A stretch of 64,000 nucleotides of DNA, from positions 124,001-188,000 of the forward strand of contig QPGO01000041.1 in assembly GCA_008632985.1 (NCBI GenBank), given 5' to 3'. Positions 29,501-60,974 of the stretch are shown here, in pieces (positions within the stretch are counted from its first letter, which is position 1; each line of letters begins with the position of its first letter). The notes below the pieces were generated by a model, which was not told the origin of the DNA, did no database searches, and saw nothing but the letters and a program-made list of their open reading frames with translations. The stretch comes from Psammoneis japonica. Its lineage: Eukaryota. The position numbers and the translations under genes are program-made.

Positions 29501-29792
29501 GGTCACTCGCACAGTGGATGGAGTACGAACTCTTCGTCGTGCTTTTTTCAGTGCGCGTCATCTGATCGTTGACCCCGAATCCCGAATCCGGGTGCCCGGC
29601 CGGGCAATTCAAGACAACTTTGAATCGTGGTTCTCATCGAATCGTGCATTCCGTTTCGGTGCGACGACCGGCCGACAAGGTGTGATTCTGACACAACTTT
29701 GCCTTTGACCATCATCAGAGAATTCTTCACTCATTTCATCGCCTTAGTGACGCAATCGACATCTACACACATCAAAAAAGACTCCAAGCACA

Positions 29793-32500: not shown

Positions 32501-32770
32501 ACAAGATTGAAGATGATTTGGATTCGCAAGAAGATCATCAAGCTCGGTGTGTGCAATAGATTGCGGGCTGGAGGTGGCAGGGACGGACGAAAGCACAAAA
32601 CATGCGCGCTCGCGCAGAAACCATCATACAGACAGACTGCCACTGCGATTATTCTCCGCGCGCCTCCTTTTGCGATCAGTAAGCAGAGTGCCCGCTGCCG
32701 ACGATGACACAACATCGATGAAACTAGTAGGTTGCGTATTTGGCAAACAGCAACAAGTGCATTGTTCGTG

Positions 32771-37931: not shown

Positions 37932-38202
37932 GTAGAGCAGCTGCGAGAGTCAGTCCTGCTTGTGTGTTGAGTGTCAAAAAGTGCTTGCATCTCCACGCGC
38001 GTCTCCCCTCGTTCGTTCGGGCCGTGGGTTGCAACAAGCAAGAGTTGAGAGCTGCCCTTGGAACATGACGGTTCCAGGTTCGAGACACTCCTGTCATGGC
38101 ATCTTTCAAATGGAGCACAGCTGAAGGAGACAAGAGAGCAACAGCATCAGCAGTCATGTGGAAGATGACGATGCGGAGTGGTTCGATGAAAAAACCAGCA
38201 CA

Positions 38203-38592
38203 GACGCGTTCCAGGTCTAGGTGGGACCTCGTACTACTGAACTGTGACATCGATAGTTTTTTGAATCACGTCGTATGTCGCGCACGTAGATTTCTACGTG
38301 ATTTTTTTGACATTTTGTGTCATTTTACGGTGCACTTATTGAGCGATCCGTCCAACAACTTTTGACATTTTTTGTTACAGCGCGATTCTATAATGTCTTA
38401 AGAATCGCGTAGGGCAGGTGCATTTGCAAAAACGTCGAGTGGTAAGAGGCATAATTGTACCACAAACTTGGCCGTTTATTTGATGTTGAAGACAAATGTA
38501 TGCATTAATTAAATTCTCGTACTACGGAGCTCGCACGTAGAATTCTACGGGCCCAATGTCACACGGAGTCCCACCTAGGGCTGGAACGCGTC
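38203..38592. mobile_element. MITE-like element (390 bp) with 25-bp TIRs (23/25) and flanking CACA direct repeats
   Basis: gacgcgttccaggtctaggtgggac at the left versus gtcccacctagggctggaacgcgtc at the right; caca at 38199-38202 and 38593-38596. Confidence 0.85.
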
Positions 38593-39479
38593 CACAAACA
38601 AGCACACTGGCAAGCTCCCACTGCCAAACATGGACAATCCCCAACACAGTGGCCCATGAGAACAGACAAGCCATGCATCTTTGTCTCCCACATGGGATGA
38701 GACGGAGTCAAGGAGGGGCTTGCAAGACCAACACATTGGTTTTTGGAGAACATTTTGCTCGCAGACGCCTTTCTCGATGATGCGCCCGGCACAGATCTCT
38801 AGGGCCAAGACAAGTCATGGGCTCTCATGCGGCCAGCCTGTGAGTGCACTCACACTGTCATCATTTTCTCGCCCTCCTGCTGAAAGCAGAAATTTTGTGT
38901 CAAGGAATTGAGTGTTTTTGACGACCGATTGAGGCTTTCTTGTGATGCCAAGGCCGCTGCTGCTGCTGCCGTCAGCAACAAGAACAACTCTCTTGCAAAT
39001 TCCAAGTCCTGCCAGCCCTCTGGAACATGATGAATTGGATGCCATGAACAGGTGAAGGACTTGACATGGATTGGCCAGCACACATGGAATCCTGCCAACT
39101 GCATGATTCAAACGTTGTTGTGGCCGAAACTCTCAAGAATGCTGCTCCAGACTGCTGCCAAAATGCCATTGGAAAAAATGTTGCAAGAGAATCTTGACAC
39201 ATGCATGGAGTCTCTAATCAGAGGGCCATCCAACATTCCTCAAGATTTGTTGAAATTTGCCAAGGAACATTGTTTGCCAGTGCTTGTTGGGGCCAGTGAC
39301 TGTGGCGGTTCTTTGTCAACAGTGTCATCCTCAAATGATGAATGCTGCATTGCCAGAGCCATGTTCTCAAGAGGACGTTACATGGATGAGGACAGAAAGT
39401 AGAGCCATCAGGTTCTCAAGAGCAAAAAGCAGATTCAAAGAAACCTTGACTGCACTGTGAAGCATGGAAGTGGCGCGGT

Positions 39480-41150
39480 CACATGTGGTGATGTAAAAAT
39501 GCAGAAGGAGTGGCGCGGCAGTCTCTTTCGTGCAAGGTGGGTTGTTTGAGTCGAAGTTGAAGCAGACATCAGACACCAGGAGGTGCAAGAGTGATGGGAT
39601 GGTGCAGGTGTGGTGTGGGGAGCTTTTAGTTTGGGTGTCGCAGAGGCGTGATGAAAGGCCGTCAAGGTTGGTGCGGAAGTTGGAAGCTTTCTGTTCCAGG
39701 CATGGGCGGGTGAAGGCTGGGCTGCCAATGGGTTGGCCGAGAAAGCAGTGTCCGGTGGTGATTTTGGGGTGCAAAGTGGGGTCGTTTGTGGGGTTGAGGA
39801 AGGTGAGGGCTTGGTGAAGGGCATCGGCGCTTGCCGGAGGCAGGTTTGGCACAGGGCTGGTGCCAGATGTAGAGGTGAGCATGTGTGTTTTGGAGCAGTT
39901 GAGGTGCACGCCGTGTTGCGGTCCAAGCTCCTTGAGGCATTGAAGGAACCATGGGAGTTTGGTGCAGGGGAGCCACATGCTGGTGTCACTGATGAGGGAG
40001 GCAGTGGATGTGATGTTGGATGAGGGGAGGCATTGGCAAAGTTTGGTGTTTAGTTGCTTGAGTGCGACACTGAGGATGAGGGCAGAGAATGGAGGAGCCA
40101 GTGGGCAGCCTTGGGAGAAGCCCTTGGGTTGTGGGAACGATTTCCAATTGCCGTCAGCATTGCAGTGCCAACAGGCATTTGGCGTGTTGCAGCAGAGGTC
40201 AAAGATGGAGACAAGGTGTCTGAAGGCGGGGTTGCCATCAAGGAGCTGCCGACAAGTGTCGCGCAAGCACTCATTGAAGAAGTTGAAGAGGTTGAGTGCA
40301 AGGAAGGCATGGGTTGGTGTTGGGACATTGAGACAGTGCTCAACATTAGCATGAGTGGCGTGGATGAAGCAGTCAAGGCCGCCTTTGATGCCTGTTCCAA
40401 ATTGACCATCCGGGAGGAGGCAATCTGTGAGAGTGGGCACGTTGACGGTCATGGTGAATGCACTGGCAATGCAACAGATTGCAGGGCCGCAGCCAACAGG
40501 GCGCAGTTTGTTGAGGTTGGTGGGGTCTTTGTGCAGTGCGATGAAGTGGTTTGCAGCGATGTGGGGTTGGATGGTGGTGGGGACAGAGTTGGTTTGGAGG
40601 AGCATCATTGCTTCTTTGAAAGTGGCAAGATGTGGCCGAAGTTGCATCTTGGTGGGGGAGCTTGTTTTGAAAAGAGCGCAGCCTTTGAGGAGGTCAGTGG
40701 AGTCAGAGCAAGGGCCAGTGGCAGTGCCTGGTTTGCACTTGCTAAGGGCGGCAAGGAGTTGGTTGTCGGAGACGGGTGGTGGCAATGGTGGGGGCAGAGT
40801 GGGTTGTGTGTTTGAGACGCGGATGTCGGTGGTGGGCATGGGGTGCATGGTGGACATGGTGCATGGATGAGGGGGAGGCATGCAGCATTGGTGGTGGCAA
40901 CTGGGAGATCAGAGGTGACACGATGGCATGCAGTGCCGATGTTGTCAGCATCGGCAGACACTTGGGCCACATGGCAGCAGGTGGAGGTGGAGAAGTCGGG
41001 TGCATGAGTGTGTTGTGCACGCATTGATCCCAGCATGTCGGAGTTGTGCAGGAAGCACACTGTCGCAGTGGAGTGGGGTCTGCCGCATGGAAGTGGGAAG
41101 GATTTTGGTGGAAACGTGCGGTCCATGTAGAGTCTGATGCATCATGTTGA
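39480..41150 (-). mobile_element. Decayed non-LTR retrotransposon, reverse transcriptase fragment (CRE-like)
   Basis: IALHK..KLRPVGCG, QFGTGIKGG, ALNLFNFFN, GFSQGCPLAP, degenerate YxDD (LISD), GVHLNCSKT, FLGQPIG. Confidence 0.85.
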
Positions 41151-41538
41151 TGTCCATCCTTCCATCAGAGAAACTGACAGTCTGACATGAACGGTTCGAA
41201 AGAGAGCTCCTCATTCTTTGTGTTTGTCTGAGAGGGACGAAGAATCAAGGAGCAAGGAGGCAATTTCAGGAGCATTGCCATGGAATGGTTTGTTGCATGT
41301 CTCATGTGTCGCGTGAATGACACATGCAACAAACACTGTTGTCGACCAGCTTGAGAGAGTGCAAGGGGATGAGAGCCACCAAAGCAGCAGCAGCCACTCA
41401 GAAGTGCCGGCACAATGAACCCACACTGGCTGTGTCCAGTGCACAAGCCACCAGGGATGCTGCTGCTCCTGTTGCTTCAAACCAGAGTGCCGACAACAAT
41501 GTTGCAGTGCACCAAGAGCCACAAAAACAAGAAGAGAG

Positions 41539-41811
41539 TCAAAGATCAAAGAGATGCCACCACTGAGGAGCAAACAAGTGCAGTGTTGAAAACAGCAACT
41601 CATGTGGCAGGCAGAGGGCAGAGGAATGCAAAAGGCATCAGGGGGACAAACACCCATGATGCAAATCCAACATCTGTTTTAGAGCCAGTTGTGTCCACTG
41701 GGCAAAGGTTGCAACAACTGCTGGCCAAGCATGCAGAAAACATTGCCTCCTTGGCTCAGCTGCTCTGCTTGACTGTGCCTCCTTTTGAGTGACTCTCCCA
41801 TGGTCAAGACT
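41539..41811 (+). repeat. Dispersed repeat fragment, homologous to 28360-28632
   Basis: Direct sequence similarity; this copy has lost more CG. Confidence 0.85.
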
Positions 41812-41819
41812 CATGTTTT

Positions 41820-42060
41820 GCATGGCAGTGCTTGGCAAAATTGAAGTGATGGCTCTTGGGGCAATGTTGGGAACACCGCCAGGTGCCAAAGATGGAGCGT
41901 CACTTGGGTCATCTGATGGCAAAACAGAAGGTTGAATTGAAGGTAAGTTGCTTGATTGAGATGGCATGTTGCAGGCTGCAGGCTTGGAGCATTGGAGGGA
42001 GCAGTGCTGGGTGCTGCACTTGGCAATCTCAAAGGCAAGTCACTGGGCATCTGGTGCAAT
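41820..42060 (-). pseudogene. Decayed PSxxPS mucin-like coding fragment
   Basis: MPSDLPLRLPSAAPSTAPSNAPSLQP and PSIQPSVLPSDDPSDAPSLAP in two frames. Confidence 0.5.
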
Positions 42061-43274
42061 GGAGTGGTGCTTTATGAAGGCAAAGGAAAGGCACTCGGTG
42101 TGATGCTGAGAATGCCGCTGGGCACTCAATGTCTCTTGGTGTCTCTTGGTGGAGGCCAGAGCAAAATGGCGTGTGATGTGGCAACAAGCAACAGATGCTT
42201 GGAAGTGGTCAATTTCAAACCAGCAAAAAAGTCTTGTTTCCAAAGACCATGCAGAGCAGCAGCAGACAGAATTGCACTGTTCAACATGATTGCTTGACAG
42301 ACAATTGCCCACGAGTCTTTGCCACAGGAGAATGCACAGTGTGCACTGCACTGACTCAAAAAGTTGAGTGCATTGCAACAAGCCATGTGCACTGGTGCAA
42401 AAATCACGCAGAATTTTCATGCAAAAAAATCACAAAAATCAGGGTCTGCTGTGCTTCTCGGCTCCACCGATGCCTCAAGGAATTGTTTTCACCTGAAACC
42501 ATTGACACCTCACATGATGGCTTTTGCACAAGCAACACGATTCTGTGTGTGAAGACTTCAAAACCCCATTTTTAGAAATTTGATCAACTCTTCGCTGCAG
42601 CCCCACTGTGGCAAACATTTTGTTCCAATTGTGGAATTTTGCCAAACTGTGGACATTGTCATGTTTGTCATCAAAAAGCAGGCACACAAAGTGTCAACTG
42701 TCATGACTGAAATCAATTCCTTGAGGTCACAGCCCATTTTTTGCAAAGCATGGGAAAAGCTTGATGAACAAGATGTGCTGCATGAATTTCCTGTGTGAGT
42801 TTTGTGCCATGAATTGGCCCAAACCCTTCTTTTTTGAACTCATGACCCCTGCACATGGCTTGTCAAAAGTTGAGCACATTGCATTTGCATTGGGTGTCAA
42901 CTTCTTCCATCTCTGAAGATTGCCTGTGCCTGGTCCATCCCAGCTCTTGCCATCCATGCCATTGAGCAAGTGCAGGTGTGGCACCAAGGTCAACACAAGC
43001 ACCAACTTGGAACTTGCATGAGACGTGTGGCTTGCTTTGGGTTGTGGGCTGGTTCTGTGCACAAGCCTGCAACACACATGTGCAGTGTTAAGAGCTGCTT
43101 CTTTTCACTGACCATGAAGGAGTTAATTTGATCTCATTGTCTCTGACAACCTTGTCAACTGTGCCTTTCTTGCAACTGCTTGATGTCACGGCCACATTTT
43201 CATGTTTGGCGTCTTTTTTGATTTTTCATGCACATGGCATGCTGTCACCCATTTTGACCTGTGAAACAATTGCA

Positions 43275-44590
43275 CCATGCAGACAGGCTGCCACTGCACG
43301 ATGATGACACAATCAATGAAAATGCGGGTTGTTTGCCATTTGGCACACAGCAACAAGTGCATTGTTCATGATGAGCTGAGTGCATCTCCTTCTCTGTCTC
43401 CTTTCTTGCTTTGCCGGCACCTGCCATGCAACTCAATGTGTGCCCATGCAACTGGAAAATTGCGGTGCTCTGAGATGCTCTCGCAAAACAAAATCACATT
43501 CCTGCTTTGTGCCAGCAGGCACACAATGGCAACCAGCAACAACTTCCACTTCTCCATTGACCTGCTGGTCCATGCAAACCATTTGGGGTGGTGCAAGCCG
43601 TGGCAGAGCAAGGGCCGTTGTTGGGCAACCAGCAACAATCATCAGTTTCATGCAAGGATCCATTGCATTTCTCAAACTTTCTGTCTTGGCCCAAGGTTGT
43701 GGCTTTGTCACATCATCCCCAATGGCAGAACTCATTGCACGATGGTTGGGCATCATTGCACTGCAAATGTCCACTTGGCTTTTGCAGCTTTTTTCTCAAG
43801 GCTGACAAGACTGCAGCTGTTGGTGTTGCATCACAGCTTGGTTTTGTTGCAGAAATCCTTTGCAGCATCATCACCAAGGAGCACAAGATGATGGGATTTG
43901 CACTGGGGCTGCATCCTTTTGCAGTGCTTGCTGGTTGGCTGCTTCAATCTGTTTGCTGCAAACGTTCACACAGATCTCATCAACAAGATTCTCTTTCTGG
44001 TTGGTTGTTGTTGAATGGATTTCTGTTTGCTTTGTTGCCATTGTGAGTTCTCCAGAATGGCTGGGGTGTGAAGGATGTGACAGCAAAAGTTGTTGGAATG
44101 ACTGGTGGTTTTGGACATTGGTTCATTGCCCATGTTGTCCATGTGACTTGTTTGGTTTGGAAGAGTGCTTCAGCTGCAGAGGAGGGTGCAGCTGTCAAAG
44201 CATTGACCTGGAGTCATTTGTTCATCCTTTTGATCCATTTCCCACCCTTGCCTGGCAAATCCCTTGGTGTGGACAAAGGAAAACAGTTGACCCTTTTGCT
44301 TGCCAAGCCACAACATTGGCTGGTCTTGTTTGTCTTTGAAAGATGTGATGACACAACAAAAGCCATCACAATGACACATGGTGTGCACAGACCCTCCTTG
44401 GCAATGGCAACGTGCATTTTAGACATGCTCTCCAGCCGTGCACTTGTCTCATGTCACCCAAGGTAACACTCTGGTGCACCAAGTCTGTCAAGTCTCATTC
44501 AAGAGACATCTGAGAGAAAGAGCCCCCTGTGAGATTTGGGGCATGCTGAACTGCAACATGTCAAGCTTGGCGTGTGGCATCTTCAGAACA
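43275..44590 (+). pseudogene. Hypermutated duplicate of the 32.6-34.0 kb membrane-protein locus
   Basis: Colinear with about 32625-33958, including flanks. Differences are dominated by TA->CA/TG and CG->TG/CA. Confidence 0.92.
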
Positions 44591-45417
44591 ACAGGTCCAA
44601 AACAGCCACATTTTGAGCCCACCCAGTTTTCCAAGCACCAGCAGACAGTCTGATCTGGTGGCACTGACCAGCCACAACTGCCAAGAAACCATGTCAGGAT
44701 CAGAAACACTGGCAATCAGAGCTCAGTGTCTCAAATCTTGTTGCATCTCCAGGCCAAATGATTTGTGGCAATTGGGCACTTCATCGCATTGCTTCAGCTC
44801 TTTCTCTCAATGGCACCCAAGAGCTTGTTGCCAAGCTTGGCATTGGACAGGTTGTTGCAGCAATGGTCATGGCAGTGGCCAAACAGTGACACAAATTTTG
44901 GCACATCAGCAACATGTCAAAAAGAGCAGCATCTGACTGCAGTTGCTTGCAAAACATTGCTCATCAGAGGCTGCAACACAGTGTTGTTCACTTTCCTTTG
45001 GAAAATTTGGAACATTTATTTTGACAATTGTGTGCAAAAATTAGTGACAGTTCATTTGTTTTTTGATGATCAATTTGCATTTGTTGTTGCCGTTTTGTGT
45101 TGGCAATTGTTGCCGTTTTATTTTGCTTTTAAGTTGCCAAAGAATTTCAACAAGCCCTTTGTTGTTGAATGATGCTTTTTGTTTTGATTGATTTTTCACA
45201 CATTTGTGGAATTGTCAACTTTGACAGTGCTTTTCAATGGCTTCACCGCAGCCTTGCGTCACCACAGACAATGGCATTTCTCCCTCGCCCCAGTCGGCCA
45301 CGCAATTGCCCAGAGGAACACTGTCTCATTGTTTCCACCTGCACGCTCCAGTTGTCCAGTCAATGGGCCCCCACCTGCATTTTGGTGCCTTTTCTGCATG
45401 CGCAGTTCTCCACCCAT

Positions 45418-45476
45418 TTCACAACAGCACACCCTCTCCCCAAAATGCTTTTGACGAGAGGGTGTGCTGTTGTGAA
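45418..45476. other. Perfect 21-bp-arm inverted repeat (hairpin) 40 bp upstream of an ATG
   Basis: ttcacaacagcacaccctctc (45418-45438) and gagagggtgtgctgttgtgaa (45456-45476), with inner caaaa/ttttg pairing. Confidence 0.9.
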
Positions 45477-45516
45477 TCCTGTGCATTCTACGTGAATCGG
45501 CAACTGACTGTTGGCC

Positions 45517-46956
45517 ATGGCGTCTGACAACTTTACCCCGTCTGACGACGAGGTCGACCCTGACCCTTCTTTCCAAATTGCTGAGGACTTGAATTTTGAT
45601 GAAATGGAACATTTCACCAATGGTTTCGGATTCGAATTGTTCCAACCCAAGCTCAAAAGCACAACTGCAACGCGTGCCTCGAAAAAGAAGTTTTTGGAGT
45701 CGACGAATTGGACCCCCTCTCCAGAATTCCTCGCTCTTCCCTTCCTTTGTCACAAGCCGAAGTTGCGCCGTGTTCCTCATGTTGCCGAAGTTGTCCGCAC
45801 CAATGACATTGCAAGGAAAACCCTTGGCTGTCCCGACATTTGGTCCTGCATCATGACTCGTGGTTGGTCCATCAAGAAATCCCACCGTGCGAAAGGCGAA
45901 TGTGTCCTGCGATGTAAAAATCTCGAGGAGGCTCTGCATTTCTCCAAAACATCCGGAGAGACAGAAAAAGAACAGCACAACCGTGTGCTTCTTCACCGCA
46001 ACATCCAGGCGATGGCAGAATTTGTTCACACGATCATTGCCGGAGACGACCCAAATGATCCTTTATCCGGTGAGCCTTGTTTCCGATTTTTGCGGTGCAA
46101 AAGTCTCCAAAGTTTGATCAACGATCGAGCCCAAGACCTCCACAGTGCCCATTTTGTCACTGACATCATCATGCGTTACGTTCAGTGCAAGCCCAAGGAC
46201 ATGGACTGTTGGTTCTTGAAGATTTTCCGTCACGTCAAAACCCAAAAGGAATGGTGCCTCTTTGTTGACAGCTTTCTGGTCATGTGCGACACTGATGATC
46301 CTGGTGCCCAGGCGGATGAGATCAAGGGGTTCCTTGACGACTCAACCGGCAACACAAAGAACACAGTGATGATGCAAGGCAATTCCCTTGCACGCCGTGA
46401 GGCTCACGAAGAAAAAATCAACTCCATGTTGAATCACGAATTTGGGAAGCGTTGTCCCAAGGAGCAAATTGGCATCCGACCTGGGCACAGCAAGCAGCTC
46501 ACAATGCTCCGTTGCAGAATGCGTGATCAGAGGGCCGACCACTTGGAAGACGACAACAAACGAATCTACAACTCCAAAACCAAACGCAAAATCAGGAGGA
46601 CCCGCAAGGATGGCACCTGTTTGTACGATGGTGAGAACCCCCCCCCCACCTCTTGCCTTCTGCCTTTCCGCCTGCATCTGTCATCTCAATGTCTCTTCTC
46701 ACACCCCATGGTTGTTCACGACCCACCAGAGCCTTCCTTGACCGTTCCCAACAAGAAGGCCAAGCCTGCATCTCGCAACAAACAAGCCCCTCCATCGCTT
46801 TCTGGCAATGTTCCGTCGTCTGGGGAGGCGCACCGGACTCTCACCGCCGACCTTCCGTCACTCTCAGAAATTGTGGAAAACCCAAAACCCACTTCTACCT
46901 CCATCCAAAGGTCCTTCGTCCAAACCTCATTCCTCTCCTCCTTCTGTTTCAGCTGA
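45517..46956 (+). pseudogene. Transposon cargo ORF A, unknown function; possibly the N-terminal part of the next ORF
   Basis: Long protein-like ORF (MASDNFTPSDDEVDP...), Tyr-poor and Cys/His-rich; overlaps ORF B by a frameshift or intron. Confidence 0.6.
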
Positions 46957-49500: not shown

Positions 49501-49639
49501 CAGCCAAAGAACTGCTGCAATTGTTTGGTGCCATGTTTTTCACAAATCTTGGTCCGCAACATGACTCCTCCTGTGCTTTTGTTTCACATTGTCATGTCAT
49601 CCCCAGACAAGACGGAAAGGCAAATGTCCTGTGGCTTTG

Positions 49640-50507: not shown

Positions 50508-50543
50508 GTTTTCTGCTGCTGTTGTCGGATGCTCACATGCTTT

Positions 50544-53500
50544 TCACCTGCTTTTGTGAAACAGCTCTCCCCATGCATTTCTGCGGTCTTGAACTGCCCA
50601 AACATGCTTTGTCCTGTCGTGTGTCTCAGCAATGCCGGGTTGCTCCTCATGCACCAACAATTTGTCACCAACAGCGTCGGTGGGCACCAAGAAAAGCTTG
50701 GGTGAGTACACTGTTTGTTCAGCAGAGGACAAGTTGTTGTTCTTCACTTGGTCCAATTGCCAGCGACCAACCAGGTCAGTGTGTTGCATTCATTCAACCA
50801 TGGTGCGCTTGTTGGGCTGGCACGTGCAAGGGTGAACGACCGCATGCAAGTCACCGTCGCTTTCCCTTTGGAAGAAACAGTGAAGTCTTGACGGGAAGCA
50901 CAATTCCCCCCCAGTTGTGCCAAAGTTGACATTCGCCCAGTCGTTGTTTGGTCCTTCGCTGTTGCAGTCTGGGTGTGCGCGGCAAGTGTCTTTCCCGTTC
51001 TTGTGGCAGAATTCGGTTTTGCAAACAAGGTTGACGGTGAGGTCACCTCCTGCTCCAACGCATTCCCTCCACTTCTTTTGAAAGAAATGGAGCAGGACCG
51101 GGTGAACCTGACATTGTTTTTGCTTTCCGTGCCAGAGAAAGCTTGCTGCATTGTTTGTCACACTGCAGGTGATGGCAAAGGCACTGCCACCCAGTGTGTG
51201 ACTGTCGTCACCACATGCAACGTCCTTTCGTCCAACTCTCAATGTGATCCATGGGTTGGCCGACAACGCACGGTGCACCGTCATTTGGTCTTGCATGCGC
51301 GATGCAACCTGACCCAGGAAGATGTCAAAGCTGCATTGTTGTGCCGTGGCAGAGGGCAATTTGAAAAAATCCTCAAGCAAAGATTCTCCAAGACCAGCGT
51401 CAAAGTTCATGGCATGATGGAAATGACATAGAAAGATTGGAAGGTGAAGAAGCTCATGAAGTTTTTGCAGCTTCCACCCAGCCCCTTCGTGTCTGGGGGA
51501 GTGATGCATGATGCAAGACACCAGCAACCGAATTTTCTTTGTGATTTTGGTCAGGTCAGTTGTGTCGGTCGGTGGGTCGCTGAGTCGACACCAAGCATGG
51601 AAGGCAAGCAGGTCTTCCAGCAACTGGACGCATTGCCCAACACTGCAACTGAGGGGCTTTCTCTTTTTTTTCCTTTTCCATTGATTGTGGCTGTTGCCTT
51701 CATCCTCGGACTCGTCCGGTTGTTGTTCCACACAATCGTCTTCATCCGTTTTGCATGGATCATCTGTTCTGTTGTTGGAATGATGATCGTTGCCATTGTC
51801 GCACTCTTCCGGCATGTGATGGTGATTGATTTGGAACCCAGGTGTCCCACGCCCTGATGGCAATGGATGATCGTCTTGGTCTTCCTGGAGAAAACAAGAT
51901 TCGCAGACATCTCTGCCTTCCTTTGTCAGCAGCAACAAACAAAAAACAAAGGCCATCCCCGCCCAATGATGTGAGTTGAGGCAGGTGAGTGATGTTGCCC
52001 CGCCCTTGAAATTGGTTCGCAAGAAAGAATTGCACGTGGATCAGTGATTGCCAAACATTTTTTCCACCAATCTGTCGACCTCGCTTCTCACTGAGTTTGT
52101 CATGCTGTCAACAAAAACACCAACCTCCCTTTTTAAAGTTCCGTTTTCAAAAAGGTGCATCATGTCGCTTGCCGTGGAAAGGGTTGCTCCGAATGGCTGT
52201 TCTCCGAAATCTGCACTGAGCAAGCTGTTGGTGGGCACATTGTGCTGCTTCATGCAATGAAGCTGCTGCAGCCAGTGGCTCCTTTCTTGCTCGTCAAGAC
52301 TGAGATCATTTGCGTGGTTCTGGACTGACAAAATGTCGCCAGCCCTGACTGGTTCGCACTCCTTCCAAGGGTCGTCAAGCTCATTGCATCCGGTCATGCA
52401 AAACCTGGAACAACATTGGTGACAGTTCTTGGCACCACACCCACCCACAAGGCAGTCACCACTCTTCGCATCTCCATTGATTGGGGTCATTGTTGGAATG
52501 ACATGAAGGAAACGTGTCTCATCACCGCGTCGAACGCAGCAGCGAAAGCCACCGTTTTCCATTGTGTCTGGCAGAGGCTGGAGCATTGTTGCCAACACCT
52601 TGTGATGATCCTGGATGCTTTGGCCCTTCTCCGACTTTCGAGCATTAGATTGCTGTTTGGCGGTGGAGGAGGACATTTTTTCTAGGTCGGGAATGCAGCC
52701 AAGGACACGCCACTTCGCTCTGTCATGCCATTGGTTGCAGGCAACATGAGCCGACGTAACCATGACGGGTTCTCCGCAGGAAGACGACATGGAGGCTGTC
52801 TTCCCAGTCTTGTCAACGTAAATTGTCAAACATTCAAGGAACTCTTTAAGAGGATCCGAGACCCTGGCTGCACGCGCACTTCTGTGCCACTCTCCTGCCA
52901 AAACACACTTGTCGTGCTTTCCCTTTGAGACATGCGTTCCGCATGGATCGGCAGTGTCGGCGAGATTGCTGGGGTTGGCCCATGTGCAAGCATCCAGCAT
53001 GAACGATTCCCACACATCTTTGAAATTCCATCGCGGAGCTCTTGCCATTGTCTCACCGTGTTCCCCATTGATGCTTTCTAGGTTGACTGGAATCATCTCG
53101 CATTCCGGACCTGCAAAAGATTTGTGCAGGTTCTCCACCAGTTTGGTCTGGCAAGGGATTTGTGTTCCAAGATGGAAGGTGCTGCCACAGTGTCTTTCGA
53201 TGAACTCGGCGATCTTGTCGCACAGGTGAAGCGGTGCTCTGCAGTCATCTAAGAGCTTGCACAGCTCTGCACAAGCACCGTTGAGGTTGCCAAGAGATGG
53301 CATGCATGCAAAGGTGTCTTCGGCTGGGCTGCGGTGCACCTTGCCCAATTGGCTGTCTTCACTCCGCGAATCATCTTCGTCTGAGCTGTTTGATTTGTCA
53401 GGATTTGCAACTTCGGAGCCCTCCATTGTGACATCTGGCAGCGCGTCAAACGAGTTGTCTGGTGACAAGCTGGCTTCGGAAGACAAGTCCAGGGACATGT

Positions 53501-53942
53501 CATGAATTTCCTCGTGATGGGATCACGGCCCAAGAGCGGAAATGTCATCATCAAACGGCGGTGACCATGGTTCATCGCTTCTGTCGTTTTTGTTGTCAGT
53601 GGACCCAAGCCTGATGTTTGCTGCGGATGCACCTCGTCTGGACCGCCTCAGCCATGGCTGTGACGCGTCATCTGATGAGGAGGAAATGTCGAGATCAACC
53701 GACCCACGTCTGCGAGAGAATTTGTTGCTGACGTTGGAAGATTTAGCCGCAACCCTTGCTGACAACTCTGGCATTGGGCAGTTTGTGACTGCATCGCGAC
53801 GTGACAAGTTGGGCATCTCTTGAGCAAACGAAAAACATGGTGGGTCATGATGGAAATGGGTGAGCATCCGTTTGAAGGATCGTTTGCAACGGGGACATGC
53901 CACCACACCACCCCCACCCTGCCAACCACCATTTCCTTCCAT
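50544..53942 (-). pseudogene. Plavaka transposase (~1130 codons) with N-terminal Zn-finger-like motif; three in-frame TGA stops
   Basis: ORFs 53523.., 52041.., 50790.. and 50544.. are one frame. Motifs CPRCKRSFKRMLTH, IYVDKTG, WRVLGCIPDL, NGDAKSGD, DMMHLFENG, GWKLQKLHELLH, NFDAGLGE, RAHPDCNSEGPNNDWANV. Confidence 0.85.
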
Positions 53943-54257
53943 TTGTTGTTGCAGCAGGTTTGTGGGCCACCCAAACACATGTGTGTTCGAATGGCAGCAC
54001 TGGTTCAGTTCGTGAAAAGTGAAATGGTTTGGGTGGCAAGGAAGGAAAACATGACATGAATTGGTGCGAAAACATGGGTGCATTGTGTTCTTCCCATCAA
54101 TGAAAACATTGACAGGTGAGAATGAATCGAGTGCGTTGTGATGATTGACAACTTTGAGCATGAATGGCTGATTGCAAATGTTGTTTTTCTACGGAAAGGA
54201 AAAAATAAGTTGTGACATGATGAGCCGTGATGCGTTGCAGCGAGAAGTCCAGGAGGG

Positions 54258-55433
54258 GTGCACCCACACCTGCTGCAGCACCAGACACAAACGTTGCAAT
54301 CAACAATGAATGCTGTTGCACAAAATGACCGCTTGACAGCACATTGGCCAAACGACTGCTGGAGGAGATTTGAAAGTTTGACAATCATGACGGCAGATGG
54401 AAGGCAACAAATCATGGAATCGGAGCACGAGGCGGCTTTTGATGAATTGGATTGTTTGATGCAAAGTTCACCACAAGGTGGGATGGTGCATTCTGATGAC
54501 ACGGGTGCAGCTTTGATCGAGTTTGAGAGCGGCACACATGCGGTTGACCCACACCTGCGCCGTGACGCGATGGACCTGCAACGCATGATGAACGAGGACG
54601 ACATCGAAGGGAGGTGGCAGGAACCATGGAAGCAGAGGTGCAACCACATGGTTTGGCTGCACGAACATGTGAGTGATTGGAGCACAGAAGCAATTGAGTG
54701 CATGCACGCCAGCACAGGCATGATCTCAATTCACGACAACCTGAACTGGTTGAATGGCATCGTCAACTGTGGCATTGGTGCTCGCCATCACCCGGAGCAT
54801 TGGGGCTGCATTGCAACTCACCAAGACAGGCAAGGAAGGATGTGCTGTGTCTGCAGTGCTCTGCACAATGAAGGAGAGAAAGAGCTGAGGGATGAATTTG
54901 CAGCGGGTGCATGTGATGGTGCAAAACCAGTCATTGACAGGGGAGACGTTTCGAGATTGAGACGGAATTCGAGCGTCAGCATGCCAACCCATGGCATGGA
55001 CGAGACAGGCACTTGCAGACCGTTGGGAGAAACATCGGCAAGGGGAGGCACATGCGGACTTGCAATGGACAAGAAGGGAATTGTTTGCGATGCATTAAAA
55101 CTGGCGAAGTGGTTCCAGCATGACATCGTGCGAGACAACCATGAAAGACTTTGGTTCTGTGAGCAAATGGAGTTCTTCAGGTTGTCTCCACGGACAGTCA
55201 ATGAACGGATGCTGGACATCATCCGGAAGGAGGATGGTGAGCGGGAGAAATTTCAAAGCAGGAGAAAGGAAAAGCACTGGGTGGAGAGACGTCGTCACGT
55301 TGAAGTTGACGAATTCATGAGAATGGTCGGAGCGGAGACGAGGGCTTTCACCCACATGACTGACTGTTCCGACATCGGGCGACACATCAAGTTGAGAGTT
55401 ACGAAGTTGGAGGGTGATGACGAACTGGACTAG
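54258..55433 (+). pseudogene. Transposon cargo ORF D, unknown function, divergent from the transposase
   Basis: 391-codon charged, protein-like ORF without Tyr. Confidence 0.55.
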
Positions 55434-55862
55434 AGAAAACGATTTGGCGCCAAAAAGGATGGATGTGCTTGGGCCCCAACAGCAAACCGGAACAACGTTG
55501 AAGCAGGTGAGGGGTTTGTTCATTGCAGCAAAAACAACTTTTGCAGGCGCATGTTTCACAATGATGTTTTGGACAAAACACTTTTGCAAGCAATTTGCAC
55601 TGTGGAAGTGGATTTCGAAATTGCAGCAAAAGAGAGGTTTGAACTGGAATTCGCAATGATTCAAAATTTTCACAAGATCACAAGGAGTGGTAAAATGGAT
55701 GAATCATGTGCACATCAAAAGATTTGGTTGATTCTCAATCATGTTGCATTTGAGAAAAAGGAATCATTGATGGCAACTGCAAGATTTTTGGCATTAAAGA
55801 GAGGTTTGAAAATTTTCCAACGGCGAAAATAACTGGGACACAAGGCATGGAGCCACCCACAA

Positions 55863-57066
55863 TTGGCAACAATGGCAAGGAAGAAGAAGAAAGGAACTGC
55901 GGGGGTGGCTGGAGATCAACCAACAAGCCCAAGGCTGGCCGCAGTGTTGGTGTGGGTGGGAGCCACTGGGGATCACCAGTCTGTGAAGAGAGAGGTGGAA
56001 GAGGTGGCGTGGAAGGAACTTTTCCCAAAGGCAAAATTCCTTGTCAAGGCGGACATGGCAAGCAGTGGCAAAGTGTCGCGGCTCATCAGGAAAAAGACAG
56101 CCGGAGGAAATTACAGCAAGCGAGACTGGGCGGGAGCATGGGAAGACTGGGCAAAGAAGTGCGTCATGTGTGCAATTGACACGAAAAGGAGCACGGTCAC
56201 TCAGGCGATCAAGAACAATGCAATGGCTGGCAAGTGTTTTGTGGTGCACGGCATGTTGAGTGCAGTTGCACTCAACACAACTGCACCTTCATTTGTTGAA
56301 GTCATGTTGACAGAGAATGAAGCAGAGGAGACACACAGTCAGAAGCCAGCAGCAAAGGGTGGAGGTGGGAAGAAGAGCAAGAAGAGGAAGAAGAACGATC
56401 GCACGGAAGAGGAAGAGCCGTTCCTGGTGACTTGGGGGGAGGAGACTGTGACAACGATTGTGGAGGACAAGCGCAAGAACAAGGAAGCACATGCTTGGTT
56501 CTACGAAAACATCCTGAAATTCACAAAGAGCACCACCACATGGAGAAGAAAGGCAGAGTCGGGTGAGACAAAGGCAACCAGTCAGGCTGCAGCGAGCGAC
56601 GAGGCTCTAGCGCTGTTGACATTGGAAAACTGCTGGAAGAGTTGGGAGCACAAGGCACGTCATGACAAGACTGTTGCAGCAGGGGGGGGGGGGGTTCGGA
56701 CGAAGAAGATGAGGAAGAGTCGGAACCAACACTCAAGTGCACGCAGGGATCAAGCGATTCAACGAACTGCTTGCGGCAGCAAAGAAAGACAGGTTGAGTG
56801 AGGAGGGCATGCAGTTCGACACATGGTGCAGCAAAGGCAAGAAAAGGAAGAGTGACGAAAGAGGCAAGGGATCGAAAAGAAAGAAAAAGCAGGTGGAGGA
56901 GGCAAGAACACAGGCAACGATGGAGCTTTCAAGTGACGACGAGGAGAGGGAGGAAGAGGCAACGGACGAGAACAGAGGAGACGAGGACAGCAACGAAGGG
57001 GAGGAGGACAGTGATGCGGAAAGCGATGCGAGTGTAGATGCAGATGGTGAGCGAGCTGCGGCATGA
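55863..57066 (+). pseudogene. Transposon accessory gene (SDEALALLxLEN / GIKRFNEL family), probable intron 56230-56301, acidic tail
   Basis: KRSTVTQAIK, HAWFYENIL, SDEALALLTLEN, GIKRFNELLAAAKKDR; homologous to the gene at 337-1420. Confidence 0.7.
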
Positions 57067-58097
57067 AAAGGCAGCGGAGGCTTTTGTTAGTGTGACAATG
57101 GAAAGAGGACAAGCAACGCAGCAGGCTTCAATGTCAACAGTTGTGAGGTTTGACAAAGTGTCAAAGGGATCATTGTTTTGTGATCTAACCTTTCGTTTGA
57201 CAACCAGTGCATGCAACAGAACCAGTGCATGCAATGGAACGTTCTCTTGACCAATGTAACGCAATGATTGGCATTAAATTGTCATCAACCAAAACGTTGT
57301 GAACATTGCTTTCAAAAGGTAAAAAGTGACGGAATTCTGACAGTCAAGGGAGGGGTCCCACAGGCAAAGGAGGGGTCCCATGGTGAAAAATGCAATGCTG
57401 TGATGTGTGATAAAAAATCACGTTCTACACAACTCACTCAATGTGAAACCATTGCATTCACACCTGTGATGGCATTGAAAATCACCTGTGAGAAGGGTGG
57501 TCAGGATCACTGTGTTTCGCGCTCTGATGCTGCTGTCAGCAAAATGAAAAGCATGCATGGTCAACTGCAACTGCTGACAACAATGAAAACTTGAACTTTC
57601 TTCCTCCACATTGACATTTCTTGACATCATTGAGATGCCAGCTCACATCTCTGGCAAAATGGAGACAATGCATGCACTGGCTGTCAGCTGTCCCAAGTGC
57701 TGTGCAGGATCTGCATGGGCCTGGTGATGACTCAGAAAAAAGTCAACAACAAAAGAGCTGCAGCAGTTCTTGACTCAAGAGGAAAAAGTTTAAGGTCCTC
57801 TCAGCAAAAGAGACTTCTGAAACAGCTGTGAGATGTGCACAGAATGCAGAACGTCAGGGTCATCTGGGCAAGACATGTCATCCACCGCTGCATTTTTCAT
57901 GCCAGACAAATCATGTTTGCAGCACAAATTTATTCCAAGTTGGCCATGTGCTCAAGCAGGGCAGCACACCAAACACAAAACAGCAGCTGTTGTCCTTGAT
58001 GAGAAGCAGCAGCAGCCCAATCATCAGTGCACATCAGCAATCTGCACTCTCCTCCAAGATGACATCTTTGCAGAAGAAGAAGAAGAAGAAGAAAGCA

Positions 58098-58259
58098 ATG
58101 GCAGGTTCTTCAGCAGAATCCTTTGAATGCAACAGGTCTGTTTCAGCATGAGGTGCTCCACAATTTATCATTTCCTTCATGGCAGGTTCTTCAGCAAAAT
58201 TCTTTGAATGCAACAGGTCTGTTTTGGCATGAGGTGCTCCACAATTCATCATTTCCTTC
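58098..58259 (+). repeat. Tandem duplication, 2 x 81 bp
   Basis: atggcaggttcttcagca...atcatttccttc at 58098-58178 and 58179-58259. Confidence 0.92.
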
Positions 58260-58572
58260 ATTGCTCACATCACATCTGCTTCACATTGTTGACTGACACT
58301 GCTGTCATGGTCGCAAAGTGCAAAGAAGTTGTGAAAAAATGAGAACACACTGCCATGGCAAGTTGCACAAAAAACCAGCTTCAATCCAAGCAGAATTCTG
58401 GGCCAGTTCAATGCTCTAAGTTGTCAGCAAGTTTTTTAATTTGTGAACATTTTCACAAACAGTTTGAAAGCACTCTTTGTGTCAGCCAAACAGCGCACAA
58501 TCAGATTCATTGAGAAAACAGCCAGTGTTTTCACAATGCAAGTTTTCAATTGATTTGTGACATCACAAGCTG

Positions 58573-60308
58573 CCGTGCACAAGAAGTCTGGAATGCCAAA
58601 AAAGTCTGGAATTCTTCGCACCGCGCATGCGCATGTTGTCATGCACGAGCACGCACACAGCACCGCACTGTGCACCGTGCTGGTCTTCCGCCGTCCGCCG
58701 CATTGCCGTGTTGATCCAACACAGTCGCAACTCTGACAAACATGGGCAGACTGACAATGACAGCCATTGAGCCATCTAGATCTAAATGTGTCATCTGCTG
58801 CTTAAATGCTCATGGGACAATGTGCGCACTTGCTGCTGACTCCACCATTGAGAGACGCAATTGCACGTTCGCCTGCTGCAGCAAACTCCATCTTCAACAT
58901 CCATCTACGACCAGACAACAAAAACTCCAGGGTCCGATTCCCCAGATGAACAAATGCTGTCAAAGAACACATGTCATGCAGAGCATCAGCCTAGAAAGCC
59001 CACTGCAAGCTCTCGCAGTCACAGATGTCCATGCTGGCAAACTGACAAGCAAAGTGCAAATGTGAGCGGAACAAAGTGTCGTGCACAACAATGAACCAAT
59101 GAGGACACACAAAACAGCACACTCACCACGTGAGCTCCCAGAGATGATTCTGAGTGATTCTGCCAAATTTTATGCCCCCCAGCACCAGCAGCGGTTTGTG
59201 GCATCCGCACAACCAAGAGGAGGCAAGGTGCCCGGCTAAACCATCCTCCACCTCGTCATTTTGCCAAGTGCAAAGCCCAGAAACGCAGTTGCACCACCAA
59301 GATCTGCCAAAATGACGTGGACAAAATCACATCCTGGACAATGAAGTCAACGCGGTTGAAGAATGAGAGGAAAGGGTCAAAAAGGACCAGACACCTGCAC
59401 ATGAACCTGACTCACAAAAAAAGGCTCGTGAGGTGTGAGAATTTTGTCAAAACGAGTCTAAAAGCCAATCAATCACAAAACACTCACTGGACTGTCTTCT
59501 GTGGACAATGAAAAGACTGTCTGACAAATGCAAACATCGTGACTGGCCCTGAGGCTCAATCGCGTTGATTTGTTCCCATGGCATGCACTTTTCAGAAATT
59601 GTGTCGCCACAAAAATGACATGCCATTGTTGTGCGCCAACAAAGAACCCAAGAAGGATGTCAAGCGCGTCACAAGTCCATCCCAATGTCAACAACAGTTG
59701 CGCCAAAGGACGCAGAGCGGGACAAAGCACAAGGCTCCCAAACGAGTGCGCTTTGGTGGTGCAAATGCCATTAAAAAATTGTCAATGTTGCAGAAATGAC
59801 AATCAACCGCATGAGACGATCAAGCCACCTGTGAAGATGTGACAAAGCACAAACAACATAGATTGGCAATCATTCAGACGGCATGAAATGAGAAAATGTA
59901 GAAAGAACTTGCCACGGCAACGTTGTCGACCATTCAGATGTCACCCGCACCATGCCGCAATTGAGTCACGAGTCGAGGCACGCAACCGTTTGCAGCATGT
60001 GCAGCAACCAAAGCAGCCCAGGAGACCAAACCAATGTGCCAACCTCTTTGCAACAAGAGCAAAAAAAGATCCCTCCGCATGACGCATCGTCATCACGATG
60101 TGTGCCATGGCGAGATGCGTCAAAGCACAAGCATGCCGCAAAATCGGGTCCGGATGAGTACAATCAAATTGTTCGACTCTCGCACTTCACCGTGGTGAAA
60201 TTTCAGTCACGGACCCCGGGAACGTCTGAGGTCTCCGGTGGTGCACTTTCTACATGATTCTACATGAAAAACCAAAAAAGTCTGGAATTCCAGACTTCTT
60301 GTGCGTGG
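58573..60308. mobile_element. ~1.7 kb TIR element flanked by TG dinucleotides, interior decayed
   Basis: ccgtgcacaagaagtctggaat at the left and attccagacttcttgtgcgtgg at the right; subterminal ccaaaaaagtctggaattc at both ends; tg at 58571-72 and 60309-10. Confidence 0.75.
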
Positions 60309-60974
60309 TGGCAAGGTTCAACACAAACTCTAACTCCAGATCAATGACCCTTTGTGTCAGGATGCTTTTGACGCAATGAAAATGGAAAATGAAGAGCAAT
60401 CACCTGTTTGGGTGTGTGCAAAACACCCTGACATTCTCAAACATGAGTTGCAAGTTCATTCCTAAGTTGGCGACATGCAAAATCTATGTCCAAACAAGAA
60501 AATGTCAATTTTTTGCACTTTTTCGTTCACGCGCAGCTGGAGCACGTCATGTGTGCTCTGTGCCTCGAGCGACCACATGCGCCAACAATCACAGGGCAGG
60601 ACGGCTCTGAACATGCACCACATTTACATGGCACATGCCTGTCTGTGTCCGTGACATGTTCCTGTCTATGGTACAAGGCCGGATCGAATTCTGTGGGACT
60701 CATCTAGACTGAGATGTGTTTTGACAAACCAAAAGCTCGAATGATCCACAAGAAGAAAATCTTACTTCGCACGGGCATCGATAAGACGTCACACAGCTTC
60801 ACAAACTCACGAACAGAAACGGAATCTTCTGTGCAACCCTATCCTTGTGCATGCAACCGGAGCGGTTTCCGCAGGTTTTATTGCATGCGTGGCACGTGAA
60901 CCTCTGTTTTCTCACGGGATTGCCATGTTGAATGTGGGATATGTGGGTGCATTAGTTCATTTCTCAACATCTTC

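Follow-up and report, generated by a model that had tools for sequence, protein, structure and literature searches.

To our knowledge, no process that erases TpA was known before 2026. The closest described system is the TpA-specific hypermutation of integrated NCLDV and virophage DNA that Mettrop et al. reported from mutation-accumulation lines of Bigelowiella natans (bioRxiv 10.64898/2026.01.13.699255). According to the text of this preprint, two viral inserts acquired 231 de novo mutations, of which 230 were A->G or T->C changes, every one of these 230 at TpA, and they arose in integrated, transcriptionally silent DNA at a rate ~1000-fold over background that was episodic between lines. The preprint also describes TpA-depleted, CpA- and TpG-enriched clusters genome-wide, with RT and DDE enriched among the TpA-depleted coding sequences, proposes an ADAT2-like adenine deaminase, and cites in its Discussion the preference of TadA/ADAT2 for a U or T on the 5' side.

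Other known systems resemble this one in part. In fungal RIP (Neurospora and others), transitions in a dinucleotide context likewise degrade mobile or repeated DNA and leave sharp compositional blocks, but they are C->T changes (CpA->TpA) that raise TpA and AT content, make stop codons and mutate both duplicates. Deaminase-driven hypermutation against mobile DNA is represented in concept by the AID/APOBEC and ADAT2/TadA-type enzymes, of which the APOBECs edit C on single-stranded replication intermediates in strand-coordinated runs. Decay of CpG by deamination of 5-methylcytosine gives the same end products, TpG and CpA, but is unable to remove TpA and differs in extent between elements.

The whole stretch of Psammoneis japonica DNA analysed here, a window of 64 kb, contains four TA-poor blocks with a TA content of 0.14-0.49%, compared to 3.94% in the gene-bearing sequence between them (35,704 bp of host sequence):

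1..2150, no strand assigned: TA-free block A, 3 TA, extending beyond the start of the window
21995..24119, no strand assigned: TA-free block B, 4 TA, CG 1.6%, flanked by host ORFs
28277..29744, no strand assigned: TA-free block C, 6 TA (0.41%), CG still 4.36%
38577..60620, no strand assigned: main TA-free domain of ~22 kb, a nest of mobile elements; TA 0.49%, CG 3.28%, TG 10.36%, CA 10.15%

The first-pass annotation had described a scarcity of TA with an excess of TG and CA over 37950..60700. This composition was confirmed: TA observed/expected was 0.03-0.12 in each 2-kb window of 39001-60000, compared to 0.45-0.78 in the parts that carry genes, the ratio for TG and CA was 1.4-2.1 in the same windows, and TA counts per 250 bp dropped from ~10 to 0-3 on entering TA-poor sequence, with 108 TA in all within 38600-60600. 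The end of that range was about right, whereas its start lay ~630 bp too far left, the edge being at 38576/38577 (TA is dense through 38576 and sparse beyond); on the right side, TA recovers between 60159 and 60625. Blocks A, B and C lie outside the range. Block borders fall within tens of bases, the flanking host genes having a TA observed/expected of 0.45-0.78, and are probably insertion boundaries. Among these host genes, all named top matches of a kinase were from diatoms (49-62% identity, one longer protein 41%), and the Atlas cluster nearest to an AAA_16 protein was Bacillariophyta, so that a diatom is indicated by both.

The sum of TA, TG, CA and CG was approximately constant, at 24.04% for host sequence and 22.8-24.3% across the four blocks; the excess of TG and CA therefore equals the deficit of TA plus CG. 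The loss of TpA was uniform between elements and that of CpG variable, with CG observed/expected ranging from 0.14 to 0.74 within the main domain. At the protein level, the eight long ORFs of the domain contained 0.25% Tyr, 5.9% Cys and 4.8% His, compared to 2.73%, 2.1% and 2.4%, respectively, in five host ORFs. No Pfam match was found for the ORFs of block A, and no terminal repeats or TIR were found in blocks B and C. Positions 28361-28633 of block C are 78% identical to 41539-41811 of the main domain, with 8 copy-specific CA<->TG swaps in ~280 bp.

The direction and specificity of the change were analysed in a pair of related sequences, one on each side of the domain border:

32692..33958, plus strand: TA-normal partner among host genes, with 42 TA and 50 CG in 1246 aligned bp
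43291..44590, plus strand: TA-free copy of 32692-33958, ~80% identical by BLAST

The copy had been described as that of a host gene; the TA-normal partner exists, and its designation as a host gene is plausible but unproven, as 32692-33958 has no Pfam match. Of the 1246 aligned columns, 1044 are identical. The 42 TA of the partner correspond in the copy to CA (18), TG (14), CG (3), TA (2) or other dinucleotides (5), i.e. 40 were lost and 32 became CA or TG, and no TA of the copy is aligned to a non-TA of the partner. The strand-symmetrised rate of A>G per A was 40/83 (0.48) after T and 0.05-0.08 after the other bases (9/200, or 0.045, after A; 11/211 after C; 13/160 after G), while C>T outside CpG was 0.02-0.05 per C. 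Judged from sequence, the reading of TA loss as mutational and polarised, from TA to TG or CA (A->G or T->C), holds, the polarity in the pair being taken from the asymmetry of composition and not from an outgroup. The direction put forward in the first-pass annotation is thus borne out by the pair, and also by the replacement of Tyr by Cys or His at positions conserved in relatives.

CG was changed to CA or TG at 39 of the 50 partner sites, which supports CpG decay as a separate process co-occurring on the same elements. The distinction between the two losses had been anticipated and agrees with the blocks: block C is poor in TA but keeps its CG, and CG observed/expected is 0.14-0.21 in 41000-45000. 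CpG decay cannot account for the loss of TA, and TpA and CpG losses vary independently between blocks. The process had also been called repeat-targeted, which in the sense of RIP does not agree with the window. Here A->G changes at TpA remove TpA instead of raising it and make no stops, C>T changes outside CpG are at the low rate given above, one duplicate is untouched (the partner keeps its 42 TA and 50 CG), and the old host gene duplicates of the window, including tandem paralogs, are TA-normal. The sparing of the TA-normal paralog indicates that the process is not RIP-like pairing.

The few surviving TA were not a random sample of flanking contexts. RTAY accounted for 6% of them (baseline 34%) and YTAR for 47% (baseline 15-18%), with chi-square p values of ~1e-17 against the DNA of relatives and ~1e-21 against host DNA; survival by tetranucleotide extended from 0.00 for ATAT to 0.51 for TTAA. 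Conversion therefore ranks RTAY > RTAR > YTAR. Both strands were hit, and no signal of strand coordination was found in the pair for the 32 TA events (16 runs, 16.7 expected) or the 39 CG events (18 runs, 20.4 expected), which differs from APOBEC editing, as does the base edited, A (or T). Nor was there a signal of single-strand flank preference in the pair, Y being at +1 in 20/32 events on the edited strand and in 19/32 on the unedited strand. At the 15 informative RTAR/YTAY sites of the pair, a hand tally of product choice gave 8 one way and 7 the other. The single-strand motif to which the flank effect points, TAY, thus has no backing from product choice, which would favour recognition of the duplex over scanning of a single strand. 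Strict TpA specificity, preference of RTAY over YTAR, absence of strand coordination, independence from CpG decay and absence of RIP-like pairing together constrain the mechanism.

We consider it probable that the blocks arose by insertion of mobile elements into the nuclear genome of the diatom, namely an RT retroelement, the Plavaka-like DNA transposon of 12.7 kb, a small TIR element and several low-copy repeats, among them one with captured TA-normal sequence, and that TpA in these elements was converted by a TpA-specific A:T->G:C process aimed at mobile or silenced DNA, of the same kind as in B. natans and acting through adenine deamination. Adenine at 5'-TA-3' on either strand would be deaminated enzymatically to hypoxanthine in DNA and, as the TA motif is self-complementary, each site would end as TG or CA. 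The conversion would be almost complete in mobile or silenced DNA, most efficient in RTAY and poorest in YTAR, ordinary genes would be spared, and the target would be marked by chromatin or small RNA, not by pairing of duplicates. It would be much faster than the separate 5mC-driven decay of CpG on the same elements. By the logic of the genetic code, no TpA-directed transition can make a stop out of a sense codon, so that long ORFs would persist in the elements even as almost all of their Tyr gave way to Cys or His; many Ile, Val, Asn and Lys codons would also be changed. The long ORFs were considered as a sign of function and this was rejected, as they are expected once TAA and TAG are gone and TpA edits make no stops. 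DNA adenine deamination is our leading guess for the mechanism; TadA/ADAT2 substrates carry U or T 5' of the edited A. In P. japonica, the process may no longer be active.

The signature is already known from B. natans; its occurrence in a diatom is new, as literature searches found TpA erasure reported for no diatom and no other stramenopile. The first-pass annotation knew of no characterised system with such a signature, but the preprint, as far as its text goes, reports exactly the same one: A->G or T->C only at TpA, giving TpG or CpA, and restricted to foreign or mobile DNA in an otherwise normal genome. The diatom blocks likewise show TpA-restricted A->G/T->C, an equal gain of CpA plus TpG, and a restriction to foreign or mobile DNA beside normal genes. 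The lineages differ (a stramenopile versus a chlorarachniophyte of the Rhizaria), as do the targets (transposons and captured sequence versus viral inserts) and the state, which is saturated in the diatom, whereas the B. natans NCLDV insert, as described in the preprint, has lost only part of its TA (3.3% versus 6.0%) and is still mutating. The flank hierarchy is new here, as are a paralog that was spared, a TpA loss separable from CpG decay and a family seemingly multiplied after TpA loss; the main text of the preprint makes no mention of 'diatom', 'flanking' or 'trinucleotide'. The occurrence in a diatom suggests that such editing of mobile DNA is more widespread than B. natans. The sole earlier report concerns one chlorarachniophyte, and a saturated signature in a diatom argues for a recurrent or ancient process and not for a one-species curiosity. 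Some diatoms can be cultured and genetically manipulated in the laboratory.

The first-pass annotation had named mobile elements as the targets, and this was borne out for the RT retroelement, the Plavaka-like transposon and the TIR element, together with the copy of TA-normal sequence. A Pfam search of 114 stop-to-stop ORFs of the TA-free blocks (E<=1) returned only sub-threshold matches, to RVT_1 and Plavaka, and the identities of the elements were therefore taken from their relatives:

39370..40908, minus strand: degraded reverse-transcriptase ORF of a retroelement, 513 aa, RVT_1 E=0.022
45003..57675, no strand assigned: 12.7-kb element of an apparently highly repeated family, from summed word depth
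46742..49342, plus strand: 867-aa ORF from a protein family carried by elements and lacking annotation, with 162 relatives at E<=0.001
50793..53522, minus strand: Plavaka-like transposase frame, split by one TGA at 52041-52043
58577..60304, no strand assigned: element of 1.7 kb with 22-nt terminal inverted repeats at its ends (95% complementary)

The RT ORF has six relatives at 35-40% identity, all with RVT_1 in their precomputed annotation, which was confirmed in the four that were rescanned (4/4). Compared to a relative, its Tyr are replaced by Cys or His and the YxDD site is degraded. It had been called a LINE; the RT domain is supported through the relatives, whereas the LINE label is plausible but unproven, as only RT was found and the element showed neither an endonuclease domain nor a poly(A) tail.

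The 12.7-kb element has a weak terminal inverted repeat (45140-45168 and 57743-57771, 72% complementary). Its transposase frame scored 16.9 bits (E=0.0038) against the Plavaka/CACTA-type family PF18759, below the gathering cutoff of 26.3, and is therefore called Plavaka-like only; the relative P0121 scored 15.6 bits. The frame is 37% identical to P0121 and 54% to P0122. At 11 columns with Tyr conserved in relatives it has His (4), Cys (3), Tyr (1) or other residues (three), while conserved non-Tyr residues were kept in 9/15 (F), 17/21 (G) and 12/16 (D) cases. The 867-aa ORF contains 0.3% Tyr, compared to 2.5-4.1% in 13 relatives, and has Cys (3), His (2), Tyr (2) or other residues (two) at 9 conserved-Tyr columns; Ile became Thr three times and Met three times, and conserved P (14/16), D (13/16), C (5/5) and H (5/5) were well kept. 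Two of its three surviving Tyr lie at conserved columns, which supports no claim of enrichment (hand hypergeometric p ~0.27). No credible Pfam family was found in the 12 relatives of this ORF that were scanned, and no usable Atlas match for the ORF at 45508-46953. All 8 metagenomic loci of transposase relatives had a TA observed/expected of 0.50-0.66. The relatives of the element proteins thus keep Tyr and their DNA has normal TA, and the claim that Tyr is swapped for Cys or His in conserved motifs stands when measured against them. Three low-Tyr relatives (P0253, P0225 and P0144, Tyr 0-0.5%) were considered as the same process elsewhere and set aside, being too short and of unknown origin.

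The summed word depth of the 12.7-kb family was 1092-4195, compared to ~29-37 for exact-match flanking contigs (30-130x); summed depth is not copy number, but the copies apparently amount to tens. A 272-nt contig at depth 458 (~14x unit depth) matches the window copy in its scarcity of TA, so that the 12.7-kb family appears to be TA-free already in its majority sequence. For this family, the idea of a locus-targeted domain with sharp borders was not upheld: among the 40 copy-versus-contig differences listed, of 432 variant places, 2 were TA-type, 16 CpG-type and 5 were CA<->TG swaps (10 rows). A TA-free majority sequence and mostly CpG-type differences from it suggest that much of the TA loss predates amplification. 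Most conversions of this family seem to have occurred before its last amplification, in the lineage of the element, and some are copy-specific.

This timing could also be read as target exhaustion, in which the TA-free state would result mainly from selection: variants that lack TpA but remain functional, invisible to a host system that reads or edits TpA in mobile DNA, would re-amplify, and the state would mark successful evaders instead of inactivated elements. The excess of word depth would fit, as would the contig at depth 458, which is TA-poor and has G at 52043, giving CGA at the only stop of the frame 50793-53522, a stop that aligns with Arg of P0122. The retention of non-Tyr residues in the 867-aa ORF and the absence of stops from TpA transitions point the same way. 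We nevertheless consider this reading improbable. Full function is difficult to square with a conversion of conserved Tyr to Cys or His in 7/11 and 5/9 columns, the YxDD of the RT element is destroyed, the non-coding parts and the captured non-element sequence are just as TA-free, and the same mutational process would still be required as driver. Moreover, summed depth does not give copy number, and dead copies could also have been multiplied by trans-mobilisation or segmental duplication. A broader proposal, that TpA-directed editing is an old defence across SAR (at least diatoms and chlorarachniophytes) and that the 12.7-kb Plavaka-like family is an escape variant, edited down to the last TpA, still coding for want of new stops and multiplying unseen, seems doubtful to us; if true, the two parties to an arms race over a single dinucleotide would both have left their record in the diatom. 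That no stops are made and that one family seemingly multiplied after TpA loss raises the question of how well the editing serves as a defence.

Within the preferred reading of a TpA-directed editing process, the base attacked might be T instead of A. Oxidation or modification of thymine at TpA, e.g. mispairing of 5hmU or 5fU with G, is unlikely in our view, to about the same degree as target exhaustion. Attack on A and attack on T of the same TpA give the same sequence outcome, and as TpA is self-complementary the data agree equally with T being attacked in 5'-RTA and with A being attacked in 5'-TAY. TET/JBP enzymes that modify thymine occur in several protist lineages, but A is the usual pairing partner of 5hmU. 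The sequence offers nothing in favour of thymine modification, and the only published discussion of the signature, in the text of the B. natans preprint, proposes an ADAT2-like adenine deaminase.

Very unlikely is RNA A-to-I editing of element transcripts by an ADAR- or ADAT-type enzyme, fixed by reverse transcription. The 5'-U preference of such enzymes agrees with the signature, and the plus strand of the RT element has 200 TG but 116 CA; this asymmetry, however, tracks the extreme G/C skew of the element (611 G, 238 C). The mutations of B. natans lie, according to the preprint text, in integrated and transcriptionally silent DNA. Changes are not limited to retroelements or to the sense strand, as TA is just as scarce in the DNA transposon, in the TIR element and in the captured sequence, TG and CA being roughly balanced (1242/1180 and 164/148), and the paralog pair contains both products.

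Error-prone repair by a pol-eta-like polymerase had been a candidate of the first-pass annotation; it would act at WA hotspots in repeatedly damaged heterochromatin. Misincorporation by pol eta opposite T in WA motifs does give A->G changes, but ApA was at background in the pair, and neither a near-complete conversion of TA nor the RTAY/YTAR hierarchy would be expected, which makes this explanation less credible still.

Least credible of all is that a modified base caused an artefact of sequencing, base calling or polishing: although a single run, and none of RNA, was found to cover the stretch, and this run is probably from the sample used for the assembly, so that contigs built from this public run check the assembler and not the sample, a modified A on both strands would yield mixed TG/CA reads and not fixed states, the Tyr->Cys/His changes are coherent in protein alignments, the TA-normal paralog 10 kb away was read normally, and the read-derived contigs match the window exactly, with 0 differences over 41001-41974, 42017-42306, 42651-43150, 43719-43982 and 60226-60817.

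Across 39001-60000, the TA dinucleotide was present at only 0.03-0.12 of the expected frequency, compared to 0.45-0.78 in the gene-bearing parts, and TG and CA were raised to as much as 1.4-2.1 observed/expected in the TA-free DNA (2-kb windows). Expressed per 250 bp, the count fell from ~10 TA in normal DNA to 0-3. The list of all TA positions places the left edge of this main domain between 38576 and 38800 and the recovery of TA at its right edge between 60159 and 60625. The first-pass annotation, made from the sequence alone, had set the domain at 37950..60700; its TA depletion was confirmed, but the proposed start takes in ~630 bp of normal sequence. Three further TA-free blocks were found beyond that range, giving the following set:

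1-2150, TA-free block A
21995-24119, TA-free block B
28277-29744, TA-free block C
38577-60620, TA-free block D, the main domain

TA makes up 0.14-0.49% of the dinucleotides in the four blocks versus 3.94% in the host sequence (35,704 bp). The sum of TA, TG, CA and CG is nearly constant (22.8-24.3% in the blocks, 24.04% in the host sequence), and the TG/CA excess is therefore the amount expected from the missing TA and CG. The region 35500-37500, which adjoins the main domain, is moderately TA-poor (observed/expected 0.32, 2-8 TA per 250 bp) and normal in CpG, and its ORFs have no Pfam family; this could reflect codon usage, or an incomplete or earlier action of the same process. Within the domain, an 81-bp unit is duplicated in tandem at 58098-58259 (94% identical).

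The direction of the change was deduced from a pair of paralogs detected by self-BLAST of the window (~80% identical, with 1044 identical columns out of 1246 aligned):

32692-33958, paralog with normal TA and CG (the partner)
43291-44590, TA-free paralog in block D (the copy)

The 42 TA sites of the partner correspond in the copy to CA (18), TG (14), CG (3), unchanged TA (2) or other dinucleotides (5), and its 50 CG sites to CA (21), TG (18), unchanged CG (3) or others (8). By comparison, 99 of 113 TG and 83 of 101 CA were kept, and over the 1246 aligned columns no TA of the copy faced a non-TA in the partner. The polarity of the pair comes from this asymmetry and from the normal composition of the partner, not from an outgroup. 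With strands pooled, A>G affected 40 of 83 adenines after T, against 9/200 after A, 11/211 after C and 13/160 after G; C>T affected 41 of 99 cytosines before G and a fraction of 0.02-0.05 in other contexts. These rates by context indicate two separate transitions on the copy, TpA to TpG/CpA and CpG to TpG/CpA.

TpA loss is uniform among the TA-free parts and CpG loss is uneven: block C retains 4.36% CG with 0.41% TA, and CG observed/expected is 0.14-0.21 over 41000-45000. TpA erasure is therefore separate from CpG decay, and faster. The surviving TA sites are biased in their flanks, with 6% RTAY, 47% RTAR/YTAY and 47% YTAR, compared to 34/51/15% in host DNA (p ~1e-21) and 34/49/18% in the DNA of relatives (p ~1e-17). 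Relative to host frequency, survival is lowest at ATAT (0.00) and highest at TTAA (0.51). Products at the 15 informative half-sites in the paralog pair, tallied by hand, split 8:7 and did not confirm a simple single-strand TAY motif, and the order of 32 events showed no strand coordination (16 runs versus 16.7 expected). Duplication per se is not the trigger, since the partner of the pair and old tandem duplicates among the host genes (kinases and reprolysin-like peptidases) are TA-normal; in this the process differs from RIP.

In the TA-free blocks, Pfam searches gave only sub-threshold matches to RVT_1 (E=0.022) and Plavaka (E=0.0038). The elements were therefore described from their relatives:

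39370-40908, minus strand, ORF of an RT retroelement, with 35-40% identity to six proteins (986-1416 aa)
46742-49342, plus strand, 867-aa ORF with 162 relatives at E<=0.001, within the 12.7-kb Plavaka-like element at 45003-57675
52044-53522 and 50793-52040, minus strand, Plavaka-like transposase ORFs of the same element, with 37% and 54% identity to two proteins
58577-60304, 1.7-kb TIR element with 22-nt terminal inverted repeats

All six relatives of the RT ORF are listed with RVT_1, which was confirmed in the four that were rescanned, and one of the two transposase relatives itself has a weak Plavaka match. None of 12 scanned relatives of the 867-aa ORF has a credible Pfam family, and this ORF apparently codes for a so far undescribed protein of Plavaka-like elements. 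Compared to one relative, the RT ORF shows many Tyr to Cys/His changes and a degraded YxDD site. Similarly, the 11 conserved-Tyr columns of transposase 52044-53522 hold His (4), Cys (3), Tyr (1) or other residues (3) in the window, and the nine of the 867-aa ORF hold Cys (3), His (2), Tyr (2) or others (2). Other conserved residues (F, W, G, D, P) are mostly retained. Tyr content is 0.3% in the 867-aa ORF versus 2.5-4.1% in 13 relatives. The metagenomic loci coding for transposase relatives have normal TA in 8 of 8 cases (observed/expected 0.50-0.66), so that the TA-free state is derived and not a general trait of the element family.

A sense codon can never become a stop through A>G after T or T>C before A; stops are only destroyed or interconverted. 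Very long ORFs in all frames follow from this, and ORF length is uninformative on function here. The sole stop inside 50793-53522, a TGA aligned to an Arg of a relative, represents a CpG event. The RT element has an extreme skew on the plus strand (611 G versus 238 C, 200 TG versus 116 CA), far beyond what TpA conversion would yield and probably intrinsic to the element. The 12.7-kb element contains an inverted pair of homopolymer runs ~10 kb apart, C10 at 46635-46656 and G13 at 56676-56697.

An origin of the pattern in read errors is disfavoured. One public run contained 79% of the words sampled from 36001-46000, and contigs built from it agreed with several stretches of the TA-free sequence without any difference (word depth ~29-37). 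As this run is probably from the sample from which the window was assembled, the match tests the assembler and not the biology. Against an artefact, each site is fixed as TG or CA, the TA-normal paralog 10 kb away was read normally and the protein-level changes are coherent. At 43912-43992, contigs from another run on this sample lie with 8 differences, and their loose ends continue like the TA-normal paralog at 33263, unlike the TA-free copy.

The 12.7-kb element drew 3854 contigs at >=90% likeness, with a summed word depth of 1092-4195 versus ~29-37 for the exact-match contigs; the family apparently comprises tens of copies, summed depth not being equivalent to copy number. The differences between contigs and window, classified at 40 among 432 places, which is a real caveat, were CpG-type (CG versus TG/CA) in 16 rows, CA<->TG swaps in 10 (5 sites), transversions in 7, other transitions in 5 and TA-type in 2. 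On these 40 of 432 places, most TpA loss seems to have preceded the family's latest multiplication. One contig of 272 nt, at depth 458, had 7 differences from the window, restored TA at none and carried CGA at the window's stop in the transposase frame; the majority sequence of the family was therefore already TA-poor, with a continuous frame at this site. The sharp borders of the family are most simply insertion boundaries. A 280-bp repeat common to blocks C and D shows 8 CA<->TG swaps and 17 sites where one copy has CG and the other CA/TG, and such copy-specific events suggest that the process was active both before and after the copies separated.

A signature of this kind was first described in 2026 in Bigelowiella natans, and it is found here in a second major lineage. 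In mutation-accumulation lines, as the preprint reports, 231 of 302 nuclear mutations lay in an integrated NCLDV and a virophage insert; 230 of these 231 were A>G or T>C, 230/230 on TpA, at ~6e-7 per site per generation and in some lines only. The same source gives 324 TpA-depleted CDS, among which RT and DDE domains are enriched, along with 124 clusters depleted in TpA and enriched in CpA+TpG, and its authors propose an ADAT2-like DNA adenine deaminase (bioRxiv 10.64898/2026.01.13.699255). The words 'diatom', 'flanking' and 'trinucleotide' have no match in its main text, and literature searches found no report of TpA erasure in diatoms or other stramenopiles. The window adds useful constraints on the mechanism. 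The first-pass annotation had proposed a TpA-erasing hypermutation of repeats; its observation holds and extends to the three additional blocks, its interpretation is supported in part, and its remark that no characterised system has this signature is out of date in view of the preprint.

The evidence best supports an A:T to G:C editing that is specific to TpA, is directed at mobile or silenced DNA and belongs to the same class as that of B. natans. Its chemistry would be adenine deamination in DNA, which we hold with moderate confidence; judged from the sequence, the base attacked may instead be the T of the dinucleotide. Of the alternatives, the most interesting holds that the TA-free lineages are escapees, multiplied after their target sites were exhausted. 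Two mechanisms are disfavoured: RNA editing with subsequent reverse transcription, as DNA transposons and a captured sequence are affected symmetrically, and pol-eta-type synthesis, whose WA pattern is at odds with the background rate at ApA in the paralog pair.

For the host kinase at 6843-9248 (minus strand; cNMP-binding and EF-hand domains), every named top match comes from a diatom, with Asterionellopsis, Attheya, Nitzschia, Seminavis and Odontella among the sources; identities are 49-62% in nearly all cases and 41% for one longer protein, and the best match overall (73% identity) lies outside this named set. For the AAA_16 protein at 60900-63527, the closest Atlas cluster is of eukaryotic origin, with Bacillariophyta as its most common group. 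These two host genes place the window in a diatom and not in Bigelowiella. Two tandem paralogs of the kinase fused to cNMP-binding and EF-hand domains, an architecture with many diatom relatives, occupy 3993-9248 (minus strand; ~65% identical DNA, TA-normal). Three tandem genes matching reprolysin-like (M12B) metallopeptidase lie at 9787-18929 (plus strand), TA-normal although duplicated, and in one of them a Dicty_CTDC repeat follows. A 636-aa ORF at 19642-21549, without a Pfam family, contains internal ~130-bp repeats at 20678-21360 (70-79% identical).
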